In this document: positions 2,792-9,536 of the stretch, piece by piece | Numbering within the stretch: the first letter of the stretch is position 1 | Layout of the letters: each line of letters begins with the position of its first letter | From: a virus | Taxonomy: Duplodnaviria; Heunggongvirae; Uroviricota; Caudoviricetes | DNA: 40,052 nt | Virus record (IMG/VR): IMGVR_UViG_2541047786_000001 | Direction: 5' to 3' (one strand) | Position numbers and translations under genes: made by a program | The notes under the pieces: model-generated | Told to the model about the DNA's origin: nothing | What the model saw: the letters and a program-made list of their open reading frames with translations, nothing else | The model's database searches: none

Positions 2792-2997
2792 GTGTTAATC
2801 CTCAAAACTTTATGCCCGGGCGCAAAAGTACGTGTTTTGTCTTTGCTTATTCGCCACCCGTCTTTACGGGCCTCTTTTGCACAACCAGACCATGACGTAC
2901 CGATATACTCACCGAAGTCTGGCACTGGATATACACCTTCCGTACACTGGCGACAATCACAATAGAGATGCATGGTGTAACTTGCGGCAATAGCCAT
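2788..2997 (-). CDS. Small Cys-rich protein (putative zinc-binding), likely start at internal ATG 2997
   Basis: The track ORF 2788-3039 has an in-frame ATG at 2997 preceded by AAGAGAG and placed 1 nt after the TGA of the upstream remnant ORF (TGAtATG). CDCRQC plus a further Cys within 69 aa. Confidence 0.5.
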   Translation of the reverse strand: MAIAASYTMHLYCDCRQCTEGVYPVPDFGEYIGTSWSGCAKEARKDGWRISKDKTRTFAPGHKVLRINT

Positions 2998-2998
2998 A

Positions 2999-3139
2999 TC
3001 ACTCTCTTTTTCCCTGAAGCATGGCAGCGTGGCAGGCATCCTCTACGCCCTTAACTGCATCTGCGCAGTAGTTATAGCGATTGCATTCCACTAACTTCTG
3101 CCTGAGATTTTCAATTGCTTGCGCGACATCAGCCTGTAT
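2999..3139 (-). pseudogene. 3-prime remnant of an early-left gene truncated by IS911 (reads ...DVAQAIENLRQKLVECNRYNYCADAVKGVEDACHAAMLQGKRE*)
   Basis: The frame is open from the IS911 boundary at 3140 down to TGA at 2999-3001, with no start codon. Its stop is coupled to the start of the Cys-rich gene. Own translation. Confidence 0.35.
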
Positions 3140-3170
3140 TTGAAGTGGTCAACAAAAACTGGCCACCGAG

Positions 3171-4318
<1,148 letters not shown>

Positions 4319-4526
4319 TATGGCACCTGTGTTGTTCTGAGGTGAGCATATCACCTCTGTTCAGGTGGCCAAATTCAGTAAACCACTTCACTTAAATAGT
4401 GGATTGCGGTAGTAAAGATTGTGCCTGTCTTTTAACCACATCAGGCTCGGTGGTTCTCGTGTACCCCTACAACGAGAAATCGGATAAACTCTATTCACCC
4501 CTACAGAGAGCAAAAGAGAAACGCCG

Positions 4527-5108
4527 ATGAACAACTCATGGTGGCAGGAACTAATGCATTTTTTCCTGCAAGGAATGACACTTAAACAGTTGATTCATAT
4601 GCTAATCATCCTGATCATATTGATTATTGTTATGCCGGTAAGCGTAAAAGAATGGATAAACCTGCATAGTCCAGAAATCCTTCCTCATTACTGGATGTAT
4701 TACATCCTGTTGTTTTGCGTTAGCTATGTGCTTAACGGCGTTGTTAATTCCGCTTATCACGCTGTGACTGAAAGAATTGAGGTATTCGCTGCTCAGAAGC
4801 GCAAATCTAAAGAAGAAAAATATGTGCAAGATTTGTTTGATTCGTTAACTCTTGGAGAAAGAGCGTATTTGGCATTCGCTGTAGCCGCTAATAACCAGCT
4901 ACAAACGGAAAAGGGCGCTCATGAATCAATTTCATTGCTCAAAAAAGGACTCCTCGTTCGAAGGCCTCCTGCTGTTGGATATCCTGATACCGACCGTTTC
5001 GTTATCCCTGAAAGCTATAGACATGAGTGCTACATTAGGTTTGCCGGGAAGGCAGACAGCCTTATGGATGAACTTATCGCTCAGGATAAGCATGGCAAAA
5101 ACAAGTAA
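4527..5108 (+). CDS. sieB: Superinfection exclusion protein B-like inner-membrane protein
   Basis: 193-aa ORF with a strongly hydrophobic N-terminal region (LIHMLIILIILIIVMPV, YYILLFCVSYVLNGVV). Sits convergent to N in the early-left region, as sieB does in Rac. The name is from memory of SieB, not from a search. Confidence 0.6.
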   Translation: MNNSWWQELMHFFLQGMTLKQLIHMLIILIILIIVMPVSVKEWINLHSPEILPHYWMYYILLFCVSYVLNGVVNSAYHAVTERIEVFAAQKRKSKEEKYVQDLFDSLTLGERAYLAFAVAANNQLQTEKGAHESISLLKKGLLVRRPPAVGYPDTDRFVIPESYRHECYIRFAGKADSLMDELIAQDKHGKNK

Positions 5109-5124
5109 TTAGCAAATGAATTTA

Positions 5125-5397
5125 TCATCTCGCCGTCAGTTGTTTTGATTTCCGGTAGCCTGCCGCGTAAAGAGCTACGTTCGGAAGACAAGTTGAACCT
5201 TCATATTTTCTGGTCAACGTTGTCAGAGTTATCACTTCTGCTCTCATTGCTGGTTTGAGCTTGCATTGCAAGACCACTCGTGAAGGGGTTGGCCTGTGTA
5301 GCTTGTCGGAGCTGATCGCCTCCTGACTTTGCAGATTTGCGCGACGAGCTCTACGGCGAGAAGCTGCGGTGCCTTTAAATTCTGTTTTTCTGGACAT
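5125..5397 (-). CDS. N: N-like transcription antitermination protein with Arg-rich motif
   Basis: Start ATG at 5397 preceded by GGGAGG. N-terminal MSRKTEFKGTAASRRRARRANLQ is an arginine-rich motif of the kind found in lambda, P22 and phage 21 N proteins. Located downstream of pL and nutL. Confidence 0.7.
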   Translation of the reverse strand: MSRKTEFKGTAASRRRARRANLQSQEAISSDKLHRPTPSRVVLQCKLKPAMRAEVITLTTLTRKYEGSTCLPNVALYAAGYRKSKQLTAR

Positions 5398-5496
5398 GGA
5401 TTCCTCCCGAATAAACTTTGGCGATGCAATCTCGAAGCTCCTCCTGAGACGGTTGCTTCGGCATTGCATCCCACAGCTTATGTGGTTGGGTGATCT

Positions 5497-5540
5497 GGCT
5501 TTTCAGCCACGTAGTCGAGAGTCGACGTTGTTTAAAGAGC
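5497..5540 (-). promoter_or_regulatory. nutL candidate: boxA-like GCTCTTTA (5533-5540) and boxB hairpin GGCTGAAAAGCC (5497-5508)
   Basis: Read on the bottom strand. The boxB core GCTGAAAAGC is identical to the nutR candidate, and the boxA-to-boxB spacing of about 24 nt is the same at both sites. Confidence 0.5.
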
Positions 5541-5589
5541 CTGCCAGTCTGTTCCATTTGGCTTCCAGCGTCCTGCTGACGGTTAAATA

Positions 5590-5650
5590 GTACGATATGT
5601 ACTTTACAAGATCAATACAATTTGTTGTAAGTTGGCGTGGTTTTTTATAA
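5590..5650 (-). promoter_or_regulatory. Candidate pL/oL region
   Basis: On the bottom strand TTGTAT is followed by a spacer containing AAAGTACATAT. The same TTGTAT...AAAGTACATAT arrangement occurs at the cI-cro intergenic region. The operator assignment is inferred. Confidence 0.4.
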
Positions 5651-5802
5651 CGCTTTGTATTTAATAGTGTTGTTTTTTAGCGTGGATGTATTGCCTCGGC
5701 GATGTAAGGAGAGATCAGAATTGCGTGGTTTAGTGGGTTGCATCTATTTATTTTTCAATAAATATAATTGGTTATGTGTTTTTAGGTGGGCGAACGTGAG
5801 GC

Positions 5803-5828
5803 AAAGAAAACCCGGCGCTGAGGCCGGG
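5803..5828 (-). terminator. Rho-independent terminator after the cI-proximal moron operon
   Basis: Bottom-strand hairpin CCCGGC-ctcagc-GCCGGG followed by TTTTCTTTG, beginning 6 nt after the stop of the 250-aa gene. Confidence 0.55.
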
Positions 5829-5833
5829 TTGTA

Positions 5834-6586
5834 TTATGCTGCAAGTCTCTTAACCCAAGTCTCTCTTTTGGAGAATGGTAGAACTTGGCTTGATTCATGG
5901 AAGAGTAAGGAGAGTTGTTGCATTTGATCACCAATTGCTTCGCTGTCTATAACAACAAATCTGTTGTTATACTCCTCACTTGAAGCTTTAAGATCAATTA
6001 GTTTCCCAAGCAATGAGTAAGCACTATTCCAGCTTCCTCCGTGTTTCACGCTTGATGTAAAAACGTATTTAGGTATGTCGGTTTTTATTGTTACAGGGAC
6101 GGTAATTTGATGTCCACTCAAGCCATATACGTTTTCACGAAGAGAAAGTGCGTCTCTAAGCTCTGTGTGATATAGATAATCAATAACCATACTTTCAAAC
6201 TTTTCAGCTTGAACTGGCTGATACCAGTCTAACGACAAAGTTGATGCGAGTATACCAGCTCTAATTATGTTCGATGTAATCGCACCGACATCCTTTTCTG
6301 TTGCCCAAGCAATGATTTCTCCTCGAGCATTGAGTTCTGCGCCTTCTTTAAGCAGTAATTGTCGTATCTCATCAAGTCGTTTTTTGGTAAGCGAGATCCC
6401 TCTTGCCTCCATATTCATTAAGGCATCGCATCTGTCACTAACTAAATACCTACCATTGACTTCACGGATAAAGGCACCGACATGCTCTCCATCATCACAG
6501 TAAGTGAATGGACTGATAATTCTCAAGGTCTTGCCTATTGGATGGCATTCGAAACCTAGTTGTGAGATCACTGTTGAGCACATCAT
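5834..6586 (-). CDS. Unknown-function protein B of the cI-N moron operon (rexB-position gene)
   Basis: 250-aa ORF whose start ATG 6586-6584 overlaps the stop of the upstream 185-aa gene in an ATGA arrangement. AT-rich by eye. No motif I can assign and no obvious transmembrane segment. Confidence 0.75.
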   Translation of the reverse strand: MMCSTVISQLGFECHPIGKTLRIISPFTYCDDGEHVGAFIREVNGRYLVSDRCDALMNMEARGISLTKKRLDEIRQLLLKEGAELNARGEIIAWATEKDVGAITSNIIRAGILASTLSLDWYQPVQAEKFESMVIDYLYHTELRDALSLRENVYGLSGHQITVPVTIKTDIPKYVFTSSVKHGGSWNSAYSLLGKLIDLKASSEEYNNRFVVIDSEAIGDQMQQLSLLFHESSQVLPFSKRETWVKRLAA

Positions 6587-7140
6587 ATTCCAAACCCCAT
6601 TTGCCCCGACTCATCTTCAAGCGGTAAAGGTATTCTCCCAGAGTAAGTTATGTTCAGATGTTTACAGAAGTAATTCCAATACCCTACCAGGTCATCTGGG
6701 TTTATGTCATCTTCGATTGGAAACGCTATTCTATCACTATAGTATCCAGCTTCTTCATAGTATACATGGTAGTGAGCACCGTAAATGATATCTTGGTACT
6801 TCGGATGATCGACCTTGTAACTATTCGTGTGTTTGTCAAAGTGATAGGTATCTACCGCGAAAACCCTCTTGTTATGATAGAAAGCAATAATATTTATTTT
6901 AGGGTAAGAAATCGGGTCATCAGGTTCTGAATCCTGATCTGGTTTCCATTTCAGTTCAAACTTTAGCCCTTGTATAGGTATACAATCCTCATCCAAGGGG
7001 ATGATATGGGCTTGTAGCCACATATCAGAGCGACTTGGTTTCTGTTTCCATTTAACGCCAGAAAAGTTAACTATTTTTTTACAATAAAGTACTTTATCAA
7101 CTTCTACTTGGCTTGGCTGATAATCATCTATTTTTGCCAA
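6583..7140 (-). CDS. Unknown-function protein A of the cI-N moron operon (rexA-position gene)
   Basis: 185-aa ORF beginning with TTG at 7140 (MAKIDDYQ...), 40 bp downstream of the cI stop. Acidic, Tyr/His/Pro-rich (HYHVYYEEAGYY). The start codon is uncertain; the next in-frame Met is residue 40. Confidence 0.7.
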   Translation of the reverse strand: MAKIDDYQPSQVEVDKVLYCKKIVNFSGVKWKQKPSRSDMWLQAHIIPLDEDCIPIQGLKFELKWKPDQDSEPDDPISYPKINIIAFYHNKRVFAVDTYHFDKHTNSYKVDHPKYQDIIYGAHYHVYYEEAGYYSDRIAFPIEDDINPDDLVGYWNYFCKHLNITYSGRIPLPLEDESGQMGFGI

Positions 7141-7179
7141 TGTTTACCGCCCTGTAAATTGTAGATAAAAGTGGTTTCA

Positions 7180-7839
7180 TCACCCAAACGTCTCTTCAGG
7201 CCATTGGCTGGCGATAACTTTCCCCACAACGGAACAACTCTCATTGCATGGGATCATTGGGTATTGTGGGTTTAGTGGCTGTAGAAACACCTGACCGCTA
7301 TCCCTGATCAGTTTCTTGAAGGTAAATTCATCACCACCAAGTCTGGCTATGCAGAAATCGCCGGGCTCAACAGCTTGCTCAGGGTCAACCAGAATTAACA
7401 TCCCGTCAGGAAAGCTGGGTTTGGAACCTGTTGGTGCGGTCATTGAGTTACCTTCAACCTCAAGCCAGAATGCAGAGTCACTGGCTTTTTTGGTTGTGCT
7501 TACCAATCTCTCCGCATCGCCTTTGGTAAAGGTTCTGAGTTCTGGAGAGAACATCCCAGCCTGAACATGAGAAAAAACAGGGTACTCATATTGTTTTTTA
7601 ACTGGGGCCGATGAGTATTCGCCAACAGGTGAAAATGTCCCGTCGTGGTTGAATGATATGTTATCAATACCAAGGTATTTAAACACCACACCAATATCAC
7701 TAAGAGATGGATGACGAGATCCGCGCAACCAGTGTCCAATCCCACCCTGCGTCATACCTAGCTCTTCGGCTAACTTCTCTTGAGTTATGCCGAGCTCTTT
7801 CATTCTGGATCTAGCCAGTTCATACCATTTCATTTTCAT
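7180..7839 (-). CDS. cI: CI-type prophage repressor (N-terminal HTH, C-terminal LexA-like S24 autopeptidase domain)
   Basis: Start ATG 7839 (MKMKWYEL...) preceded by AAGGA. HTH segment [23 protein letters not shown]-terminal GNSM...K motif typical of the Ser/Lys dyad of RecA-stimulated self-cleaving repressors. Confidence 0.85.
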
Positions 7840-7879
7840 GTCCTTATTATTACGCTCTGTACTGGAACCATCCATGCAC

Positions 7880-7950
7880 AATGTGTATTTTTACTTGTAT
7901 TCGCAAAGTACATATTGTATTTTTTTATTCGTGTTTACTATGGAGGGCAT
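7880..7950. promoter_or_regulatory. Candidate oR/pR/pRM region between cI and cro
   Basis: TTGTAT (7895-7900), a 17-bp spacer containing AAAGTACATAT (7905-7915), TATTTT as a -10 candidate, then GGAGGG before the cro ATG. Shares the AAAGTACATAT element with the candidate oL. Confidence 0.45.
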
Positions 7951-8166
7951 ATGAGCAACCTACGAAAATATCGAGAGTCACTGAATATCTCTCAAACAAC
8001 ACTTGCTAAGGCAGTTGGATGCACACAGGGAGCTATCGGACATTGGGAATCTGGTCGTCGCTTCCCAGACCTTAAAACATGCCGTGCTCTTGTTGCGTGC
8101 CTAAACAAGTTAGGCGCAAAAGTCAGTCTTGATGACGTGTTCCCGCCGGAACACAAAGCCGCTTAA
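7951..8166 (+). CDS. cro: Cro-like HTH repressor
   Basis: 71-aa protein from ATG 7951 with GGAGGG 3 nt upstream. HTH segment ISQTTLAKAVGCTQGAIGHWESG. Divergent from cI across the operator region. Confidence 0.75.
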   Translation: MSNLRKYRESLNISQTTLAKAVGCTQGAIGHWESGRRFPDLKTCRALVACLNKLGAKVSLDDVFPPEHKAA

Positions 8167-8176
8167 TAAGCGGATC

Positions 8177-8222
8177 CGCTCTTTGTAACAACGGACATTC
8201 GTCCTACGTCGCTGAAAAGCGA
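8177..8222 (+). promoter_or_regulatory. nutR candidate: boxA CGCTCTTT (8177-8184) and boxB hairpin TCGCTGAAAAGCGA (8209-8222)
   Basis: boxA is close to the lambda boxA CGCTCTTA. boxB is a 5-bp stem with a GAAA loop, like the lambda boxB architecture. Positioned between cro and cII as in lambda. Confidence 0.5.
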
Positions 8223-8307
8223 GTTCCAAGATATCTGACCAACTAAGGCCATATGCGTTTCCACGCATACCTTTCAACTAACTATTCACTATTGGAAATC
8301 TTAAGAA

Positions 8308-8604
8308 ATGGAAAGAACAAGTTACAGCAAACTATCACAGCGTGACGTTGATCGCGCAGAAACAGATTTACTTATCAATCTGTCAGCTATTACCCAGCGC
8401 GGTCTGGCAAAGATGATTGGCTGTCATGAATCGAAGATAAGCAGAACGGACTGGAGATTTATTGCTTCGGTCTTGTGTGCTTTCGGAATGGCATCAGACA
8501 TCAGTCCGATTAGCAGGGCTTTTAAGTATGCGCTTGATGGACTCACCAATAAAAAACGCCCGGCGGCAACCGAGCGTTCTGAACAAATCCAGATGGAATT
8601 CTGA
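8308..8604 (+). CDS. cII: CII transcriptional activator (hybrid: divergent N-terminus, lambda-identical C-terminus)
   Basis: 98 aa. The C-terminal LTNKKRPAATERSEQIQMEF matches the lambda CII C-terminus as I recall it; the N-terminal two-thirds differ. Confidence 0.85.
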   Translation: MERTSYSKLSQRDVDRAETDLLINLSAITQRGLAKMIGCHESKISRTDWRFIASVLCAFGMASDISPISRAFKYALDGLTNKKRPAATERSEQIQMEF

Positions 8605-8636
8605 GGTCATTACTGGATCAATCCACAGGAGTCATT

Positions 8637-9536
8637 ATGACAAATACAGCAAAAATACTCAACTTCTGCAGAGGTAACTTTGCCAAACAGGAGCGTAATG
8701 TGGCAGATCTCGATGATGGTTACGCCAGACTATCAAATATGCTGCTTGAGGCTTATTCAGGCGCAGATCTGACCAAGCGACAGTTTAAAGTGCTGCTTGC
8801 CATTCTGCGTAAAACCTATGGATGGAATAAACCAATGGACAGAATCACCGATTCTCAACTTAGCGAGATTACAAAGTTACCCGTCAAACGGTGCAATGAA
8901 GCCAAGTTAGAACTCGTCAGAATGAATATTATCAAGCAGCAAGGCGGCATGTTTGGACCAAATAAAAACATCTCAGAATGGTGTATCCCTCAAAACGAGG
9001 GAAAATCCCCTAAAACGAGGGATAAAACATCCCTCAAATTGGGGGATTGCTATCCCTCAAAACAGGGGGACACAAAAGACACTATTACAAAAGAAAAAAG
9101 AAAAGATTATTCGTCAGAGAATTCTGGCGAATCCTCTGACCAGCCAGAAAACGACCTTTCTGTGGTGAAACCGGATGCTGCAATTCAGAGCGGCAGCAAG
9201 TGGGGGACAGCAGAAGACCTGACCGCCGCAGAATGGATGTTTGACATGGTGAAGACCATCGCGCCATCAGCCAGAAAACCGAATTTTGCAGGGTGGGCTA
9301 ACGATATCCGCCTGATGCGTGAACGTGACGGACGTAACCATCGCGACATGTGTGTACTGTTCCGCTGGGCATGCCAGGACAACTTCTGGTCCGGTAACGT
9401 GCTGAGCCCGGCCAAACTCCGCGACAAGTGGACCCAGCTCGAAATCAACCGTAACAAGCAACAGGCAGGTGTGACAGCCTGCAAACCAAAACTCGACCTG
9501 ACAAACACTGACTGGATTTACGGGGTGGATTTATGA
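8637..9536 (+). CDS. O: Replication initiator protein O (lambda O)
   Basis: 299-aa protein essentially collinear with lambda O (MTNTAKILNF...TDWIYGVDL). AGGAG ribosome-binding site. Contains the origin iterons. Confidence 0.95.
   Translation: MTNTAKILNFCRGNFAKQERNVADLDDGYARLSNMLLEAYSGADLTKRQFKVLLAILRKTYGWNKPMDRITDSQLSEITKLPVKRCNEAKLELVRMNIIKQQGGMFGPNKNISEWCIPQNEGKSPKTRDKTSLKLGDCYPSKQGDTKDTITKEKRKDYSSENSGESSDQPENDLSVVKPDAAIQSGSKWGTAEDLTAAEWMFDMVKTIAPSARKPNFAGWANDIRLMRERDGRNHRDMCVLFRWACQDNFWSGNVLSPAKLRDKWTQLEINRNKQQAGVTACKPKLDLTNTDWIYGVDL
8986..9110 (+). repeat. ori-lambda: four ~19-bp iterons (ATCCCTCAAAACGAGGG-type) followed by an AT-rich region, embedded in O
   Basis: Direct repeats tccctcaaaacgaggg, tcccctaaaacgaggg, atccctcaaattggggg and atccctcaaaacaggggg, followed by acaaaagaaaaaagaaaag. 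Confidence 0.85.

Follow-up and report, generated by a model that had tools for sequence, protein, structure and literature searches.

A repressor-linked gene pair in the rexAB position of an Escherichia prophage immunity region is distantly related to a catalogued candidate defence family

Introduction

The closest described counterparts of the locus analyzed here are the rexA-rexB genes of phage lambda, the candidate family PDC-M24 catalogued in PADLOC, and the DS-6/HipAD system. The locus consists of two adjacent genes, denoted A and B, at positions 5,803 to 7,179 of a 40,052-nucleotide (nt) stretch of tailed phage DNA (IMG/VR record IMGVR_UViG_2541047786_000001; hereafter, the window, meaning the whole stretch). 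Judging by profile matches, the A-B pair is a distant relative of PDC-M24, and, as a divergent member of this catalogued candidate family, it is a credible, predicted defence candidate.

RexB of phage lambda is a polytopic membrane protein. The A-B pair resembles rexA-rexB in that it is a two-gene cargo occupying the slot between cI and OL/pL, on the cI strand, closed by a terminator and presumably expressed in the lysogen. Unlike RexA and RexB, however, the A and B proteins contain no membrane-spanning segment and have different domains. There is no sequence similarity between the two pairs either: scans of PADLOC-DB and Pfam yielded only PDC-M24, DUF1828 and DUF6978, in agreement with an initial annotation of this DNA, made by eye, where the pair was considered unlike RexA/RexB. 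Because both proteins appear soluble, A-B is not a membrane system of the Rex or SieB style.

DS-6/HipAD is a validated two-gene defence system in which an upstream HipA-like kinase toxin is followed, with a 4-nt overlap, by a non-catalytic DUF3037/DUF1829 partner (PMC13092281). The two-gene layout, the 4-nt overlap and the DUF1829 label of the downstream gene are all shared with the A-B pair, whereas the effector of DS-6 is a HipA-like kinase, and its partner contains DUF3037 rather than DUF1828. Comparison of the B profile with DS-6B using hhalign showed no similarity (probability 0.07%).

Relationship to PDC-M24 and previous predictions

PDC-M24, like the window pair, consists of two genes, a small A followed by B of about 255 amino acids (aa). 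The PDC-M24 proteins are of the DUF6978 type and of the DUF1828/DUF1829 type, respectively. In a PADLOC-DB scan of A and B, the PDC-M24 models were the only matches. B matches PDC-M24B nearly from end to end (E = 4.7e-10; residues 2-249 against positions 4-254 of the 256-position profile), and the relatives of B match the same model with E values of 1e-11 to 3e-13. The match of A to PDC-M24A is weak and limited to residues 104-163, in the His-rich half (E = 4.8e-4); among the relatives of A, two matched this model (E = 2e-4 and 1e-3), and two did not. In contrast to PDC-M24, where A is of the DUF6978 type, the window A matches Pfam DUF6978 only weakly, with 22 bits, under the gathering score of 29.6. 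DUF6978 matches were obtained for 5 of the 15 members of the A family, with the best E value of 1e-4; A is weakly similar to DUF6978. A word-indexed homology search with a divergent A profile reached no true DUF6978 proteins, so that the direct link to PDC-M24 rests on weak matches of hidden Markov models. A literature search found no paper mentioning PDC-M24 and no published validation or mechanism for it; DUF1828 and DUF6978 appear only incidentally.

Both proteins also figure in the output of DefensePredictor (Science 2026, PMC13092281). In Escherichia coli CFT073, where the locus is 100% identical, A is WP_001062368.1 and B is WP_000968518.1, and both are listed as 'Predicted novel defense gene' in Tables S5 and S10 of that study. 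The log-odds are 4.90 and 5.42 for A, and 5.64 for B in Table S5; all exceed the strict cut-off of 4 (PMC13092281). A protein with an accession one number off, WP_000968517.1, which is also a 250-aa DUF1828 protein, has log-odds of 6.26 in Table S10 (PMC13092281). Thus, the pair had already been flagged by two published computational screens. The initial annotation, which recognized neither protein and proposed the pair as a new defence or exclusion candidate, has to be revised in this respect: B combines DUF1828 with a probable DUF1829 domain and has a PD-(D/E)xK fold, A is weakly DUF6978-like, and the comparison with PADLOC models that the annotation had suggested as a check, together with the DefensePredictor listing, shows that this is not a new sighting. 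What stands of the proposal includes the view of the pair as repressor-linked cargo, as a defence or exclusion function expressed in the lysogen would predict.

Linkage to lysogeny repressors and a variable cargo slot

Genomes, metagenomes and IMG/VR contributed 101 loci to the comparative analysis, and 48 distinct sequence pairs are represented among them. In all loci (101/101), A is located directly 5' of B, in the same orientation and with an overlap of a few nucleotides, and this adjacency is a further point of likeness to PDC-M24. In at least 87 of the 101 loci, the gene immediately 5' of the pair and on its strand encodes a repressor combining HTH and S24 domains; the initial annotation had suggested checking whether the pair co-occurs in the cI-N slot of other lambdoid prophages. 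In L071 and L081, the pair follows a 131-aa CI-type HTH repressor (3923-4318 and 3943-4338, respectively) that faces a Cro/YdaS-like gene. Every other exception is either a short contig or a mobile element of non-phage type that has resolvases or a D5-type primase. Nearly all phage copies of the pair are therefore 3' of a lysogeny repressor gene and on its strand, whatever the repressor type.

The identity of the pair is decoupled from that of the repressor. L046 encodes A and B with 99-100% identity to the window pair and a cI with 69% identity; in L105, the corresponding values are 41% for A, 51% for B and 71% for cI. Alleles of cI that are 92-99% identical to the window cI at the nucleotide level were found in 776 genomes, compared to 241 for the pair. 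Among E. coli prophages with such cI alleles (L023, L024 and L025), the contents of the cI-to-N slot differ: an NYN-domain gene and a pseudogene; two hypothetical genes for 66-aa and 172-aa proteins; or nothing, with N following directly. Given this decoupling, the slot is best described as a variable cargo site, and the pair as an independent mobile module, in line with the initial view of a separate module in a rexAB-equivalent position. Repeatedly, the pair has come to lie downstream of the gene that the lysogen transcribes, whichever it is. A defence or exclusion function expressed in the lysogen would predict such a positional lock to repressors across divergent phages, and among the comparative arguments for lysogen expression and for a putative function that benefits the lysogen, this combination of linkage and mobility is the strongest.

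The hypothetical genes occupying the slot in L023-L025 may themselves be further defence candidates. In CFT073 (L022, 3878-4579), cI is annotated as a split pseudogene, namely, a LexA-family fragment lacking the N-terminus and a separate HTH open reading frame (ORF). The A and B genes of this strain are intact, with 100% identity.

Organization of the cI-A-B locus

The features of the locus in the window are as follows.

7180..7875, minus strand: cI repressor gene, coordinates per the ev207 annotation
7141..7179, minus strand: cI-A spacer of 39 nt, with a weak Shine-Dalgarno-like AGGG 5' of the TTG start
6583..7140, minus strand: gene A, 185 aa, TTG start codon
6583..6586, minus strand: ATGA, in which the stop of A overlaps the start of B, read from the sequence
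5834..6586, minus strand: gene B, 250 aa
5800..5830, minus strand: intrinsic terminator closing cI-A-B, recognized by a GC-rich stem, a U tract and its z score
5591..5604, minus strand: operator-like motif AAGTACATATCGTA on the OL/pL side, near N
7906..7919, plus strand: matching operator-like motif AAGTACATATTGTA on the OR side, between cI and cro
5125-5469: N gene

The product of cI contains the Pfam domains Peptidase_S24 (E = 1e-28) and HTH_3 (E = 2e-10), and cI is, we infer, the first gene of a cI-A-B transcription unit. Most of the anatomy proposed in the initial annotation was reproduced. The ORFs of both genes on the same strand and their ATGA overlap were confirmed, and this overlap may couple the translation of B to that of A. 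The pair indeed begins just after cI and ends at a rho-independent terminator: the terminator starts 3 nt past the B stop, with a stem of 8 pairs (5830-5809) followed by UUUUCUUU, and its fold (-17.2 kcal/mol) has z = -3.6 compared to shuffles. A scan of the 39-nt cI-A spacer detected no terminator-like site. A single weak promoter-like match occurs at 7158-7130, such matches being no more frequent than in shuffled sequence. As a terminator is missing 5' of A and a strong one is present 3' of B, the two genes are probably co-transcribed with cI, as originally suggested.

The operator-like motif AAGTACATATYGTA occurs exactly twice in the 40-kb window, once close to the position near 5600 where a pL operator had been expected, and once at the OR side. 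Because these matching OL and OR motifs flank it, cI-A-B lies within the immunity region, at the position of lambda rexAB. The segment is more AT-rich than its surroundings, again as noted at the outset, the GC content of A (38%) and B (41%) being lower than that of cI (47%), N (50%) and the entire window (51%). An Rfam scan of positions 4300-9000 gave no match.

Conservation and distribution

The segment is 100% identical in Escherichia phages ev207 and ev017 (Jouyvirus), PhiR57_1 and PhiR63_2, and 99.9% identical in an Stx1a phage. At 99% identity or higher, it was found in 241 of 5,426 complete E. coli genomes (4.4%), always on the chromosome; the carriers include Nissle 1917, CFT073, NU14 and ATCC 11775. 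Homologs of both A and B are encoded in Salmonella, Klebsiella, Yersinia, Serratia, Erwinia, Pectobacterium, Providencia, Xenorhabdus, Photorhabdus, Pantoea, Aeromonas and Thorsellia. The pairing is retained in metagenomic relatives with only about 22-31% identity (L016, L017, L019 and L021), and in Pseudomonas phage VB_PaD_phPA-G (PP083311, L106), where the 4-nt overlap is identical.

Where dS was unsaturated, dN/dS values for both genes were 0.03-0.15, indicating that A and B are under purifying selection, and these data exclude the possibility that the pair is hitch-hiking junk. A diverges consistently more than B, and its dN/dS is roughly double.

In the Pseudomonas phage, the A-like ORF (2986-3504, MAKQK...) is in a stretch that is unannotated in GenBank and overlaps the annotated B-like coding sequence; a CI-like repressor is encoded upstream of the pair, with one additional gene, for a 216-aa protein, in between. 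A 518-bp contig labelled Actinomadura rugatobispora (L015) encodes fragments of A and B sharing 64% and 82% identity, respectively, with their E. coli counterparts; most likely, this is enterobacterial contamination of the assembly.

Protein B

B matches Pfam DUF1828 with 33.5 bits (gathering threshold, 22), and all nine divergent relatives examined (9/9) also match. The AlphaFold2 model of B (pLDDT 84) consists of two domains. The N-terminal DUF1828 domain (approximately residues 1-117) shows fold similarity to type III secretion chaperones and YbjN. The C-terminal domain (approximately residues 128-250) has the alpha-beta-beta-beta-alpha-beta core of PD-(D/E)xK nucleases, with fold matches to Can2 (10.3), PspGI (9.1), NgoMIV (9.0), AF1548 (9.0) and Tox-REase-5 (7.9). 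In a published HHpred analysis, an identical B protein matched DUF1829, a member of the Pfam clan PDDEXK, in residues 155-241 with 98.8% probability (PMC13092281). With hmmscan, DUF1829 was not detected in the window B, and two of the nine relatives matched marginally (E = 0.049).

Compared to PD-(D/E)xK nucleases that have sensor domains, such as Can2/Card1, and to type II restriction enzymes of the NgoMIV/PspGI group, B lacks the conserved canonical catalytic residues: there is no conserved D...(D/E)xK motif and no conserved acidic-x-Lys in strand beta-3. B also contains no CARF domain and has no sequence-level match in the PDB. Residues invariant at depth in the C-terminal domain comprise S157-G158-H159, located where strand 2 begins, as well as W186, G194, D198 and R209; K173 is conserved among close relatives only. 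No transmembrane helix was found in B (maximum Kyte-Doolittle 19-residue window, 1.19), in keeping with its initial description as soluble-looking. The accompanying statement that the pair shows no nuclease or transmembrane signature thus holds for the transmembrane part only, the PD-(D/E)xK-type fold of B not being visible by eye.

Protein A

A is acidic and rich in Tyr and His, as initially described (pI 5.3; 16 Tyr and 8 His), and has no transmembrane-grade segment (maximum Kyte-Doolittle 19-residue window, 0.45). Its structure model is confident (pLDDT 82, pTM 0.81) and mostly beta, and no structural counterpart was found in the PDB or in BFVD. The family is tiny, with 20 cluster representatives at E <= 1e-3 among 1.84 billion. 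A belongs to PHROG 2017, and the PHROG families of A and B are both without assigned function; NCBIfam scans of A and B gave no matches, and neither family profile found anything meaningful among PDB sequences.

The invariant residues of A are W31, R92-x-x-A95-x-D97, H104-x-N106, H123-x-H125, F158, P173 and Q180, and these signature residues are unchanged from E. coli to the Pseudomonas phage. The Asp/His/Asn/His-x-His pattern is of a kind typical of metal-binding or catalytic sites and may form one here.

The start codon of A is not ATG in any of the 67 matched copies of the enterobacterial and Aeromonas types (67/67; GTG in 37 loci and TTG in 30). The start position is real because the N-terminal MAK... 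residues are conserved. A constantly weak start codon suggests selection for low expression or weak translation of A.

The A profile matched a designed six-blade Kelch protein, SAKe6AC-LB (PDB 8pjr), with E = 2.9e-12. This match was rejected as spurious, being the sum of six repeats with E of about 33 each. The R-I-Y-A-V...H-x-N hairpin in residues 83-108, approximately, resembles a Kelch blade motif and was taken as a chance similarity.

Proposed function and alternatives

We slightly favor the interpretation that A-B is a mobile accessory module that temperate phages express in the lysogen, with a most likely role in intracellular anti-phage defence of the superinfection-exclusion or abortive-infection type; that the module is a defence system at all is a prediction to which we give somewhat better than an even chance. 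In the scenario outlined here, expression, complex formation, the trigger and the activity are all predicted from the anatomy, conservation, mobility, folds and earlier predictions of the pair. A and B would be transcribed with the repressor from the maintenance promoter, with transcription ending at their own terminator. A would be poorly translated from its GTG or TTG start, and B would be coupled to it through the ATGA overlap, so that both proteins would be made together at a low level, constitutively with the repressor, and would probably form a complex. A could be the catalytic effector, its invariant Asp/His/Asn/His-x-His cluster having the appearance of a metal site. B could then be a sensor or restraining partner, with the chaperone-like DUF1828 domain binding A or a phage product, and the degenerate PD-(D/E)xK-fold DUF1829 domain binding nucleic acid or a ligand. 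The trigger would be infection by a heterologous phage, upon which the effector would be released or activated. This assignment of effector to A and sensor to B is tentative, and we would sooner expect it to be revised than confirmed. More doubtful again is the furthest-reaching version, namely, that A is a new enzyme fold, a metal-dependent effector in which a beta-hairpin sheet carries an R-x-x-A-x-D/H-x-N/H-x-H site, restrained by a chaperone-like, degenerate-nuclease partner. A-B would then represent a new mechanistic class of prophage defence that is built into the repressor operon of temperate phages across the gammaproteobacteria and that Nissle 1917 and CFT073 also carry.

Several observations weigh against the defence interpretation. 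PADLOC PDC systems are unpublished candidates, and the matches of A to PDC-M24A and DUF6978 are weak. The accessions of A and B, as well as any DUF1828 protein, are absent from Tables S6 (118 cloned units), S7 and S8 of the DefensePredictor study, where the overall validation rate was 45% (PMC13092281), and no experimental test of the pair was found in the literature search. Given the negative hhalign result for DS-6B, the analogy with HipAD is limited to gene layout and a shared Pfam label. Co-transcription with cI is something that we infer from sequence signals, and in some homologous loci, the repressor and the pair are separated by a gap of 150-650 nt.

The main alternative retains the defence role and reverses the parts: B would be the effector, a variant PD-(D/E)xK nuclease using H159, D198 and possibly K173, and gated by the chaperone-like N-terminal domain, with A as a fast-evolving sensor or specificity subunit. 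In nucleases of the NgoMIV/Cfr10I/PspGI group, to which such a variant would be similar, an acidic residue has moved to the following helix. We consider this reversal of roles unlikely. Improbable, in our estimate, is a toxin-antitoxin or addiction module that stabilizes the prophage or mobile element. The compact two-gene organization, with the 4-nt overlap and the conserved weak start of the upstream gene, would suit such a module, as would the copies beside resolvases and in a primase-type element, outside classic immunity regions (L016, L020 and L021). However, searches of Pfam, NCBIfam and PADLOC assigned neither A nor B to a known family of toxins or antitoxins, and the strict placement after lysogeny repressors is better explained by cargo expressed in the lysogen than by a maintenance role. 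Many toxin-antitoxin-like pairs act in defence, and because of this, the addiction module overlaps with the interpretation that we favor.

The physical linkage to the repressor gene, which is constant whichever type of repressor is encoded, could also be read in terms of a lysogeny accessory unrelated to defence, which would modulate repressor cleavage or induction, or would alter host physiology as a fitness moron; that the carriers are commensal and uropathogenic lineages, with Nissle 1917, CFT073 and NU14 among them, agrees with that. Yet the pair moves independently of repressor specificity, it is also found in elements without a repressor on the sequence available, no regulatory DNA-binding domain is detectable in A or B, and two independent defence predictors flag the pair; we rate this explanation as the least probable of those considered.

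A validated A-B pair would be a defence system with an effector of no known fold, found at the classic rexAB position in 4.4% of complete E. coli genomes, among them those of the probiotic Nissle 1917 and the uropathogen CFT073. From the strict linkage to repressors of different families, it also follows that further systems expressed in the lysogen could be sought by a simple rule, 'cargo behind the repressor'. The discovery value is moderate, given that hundreds of comparable candidates exist and that this pair is already catalogued; the fold of A, without a solved or BFVD-predicted counterpart, keeps the pair moderately interesting, and it is readily testable.

Neighbouring genes and the Nissle 1917 prophage

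A SieB-family superinfection-exclusion gene is located at 4527-5108 (plus strand), just past N and on the strand opposite to A and B. With this gene beside A-B, the immunity region harbors at least two putative exclusion or defence functions.

Positions 8262-8280 and 8611-8630 of the window exactly match the primers with which the gene named 'phage repressor (pr)' was cloned from E. coli Nissle 1917, and the window is therefore similar to Nissle prophage 3. The primers bracket a CII-family ORF (8308-8604, plus strand), not cI. The Nissle pr gene was reported to lower the plating of lambda and stx-phages more than 200-fold (Bury et al. 2018, PMC5987069). The resistance of Nissle 1917 to these phages was attributed in part to this prophage, with another prophage factor stated to be unidentified (PMC5987069). 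In the gene table of that study, 1290 is SieB, 1291 and 1292 are hypothetical, and 1293 is cI (PMC5987069); genes 1291 and 1292 are consistent with the A-B pair.

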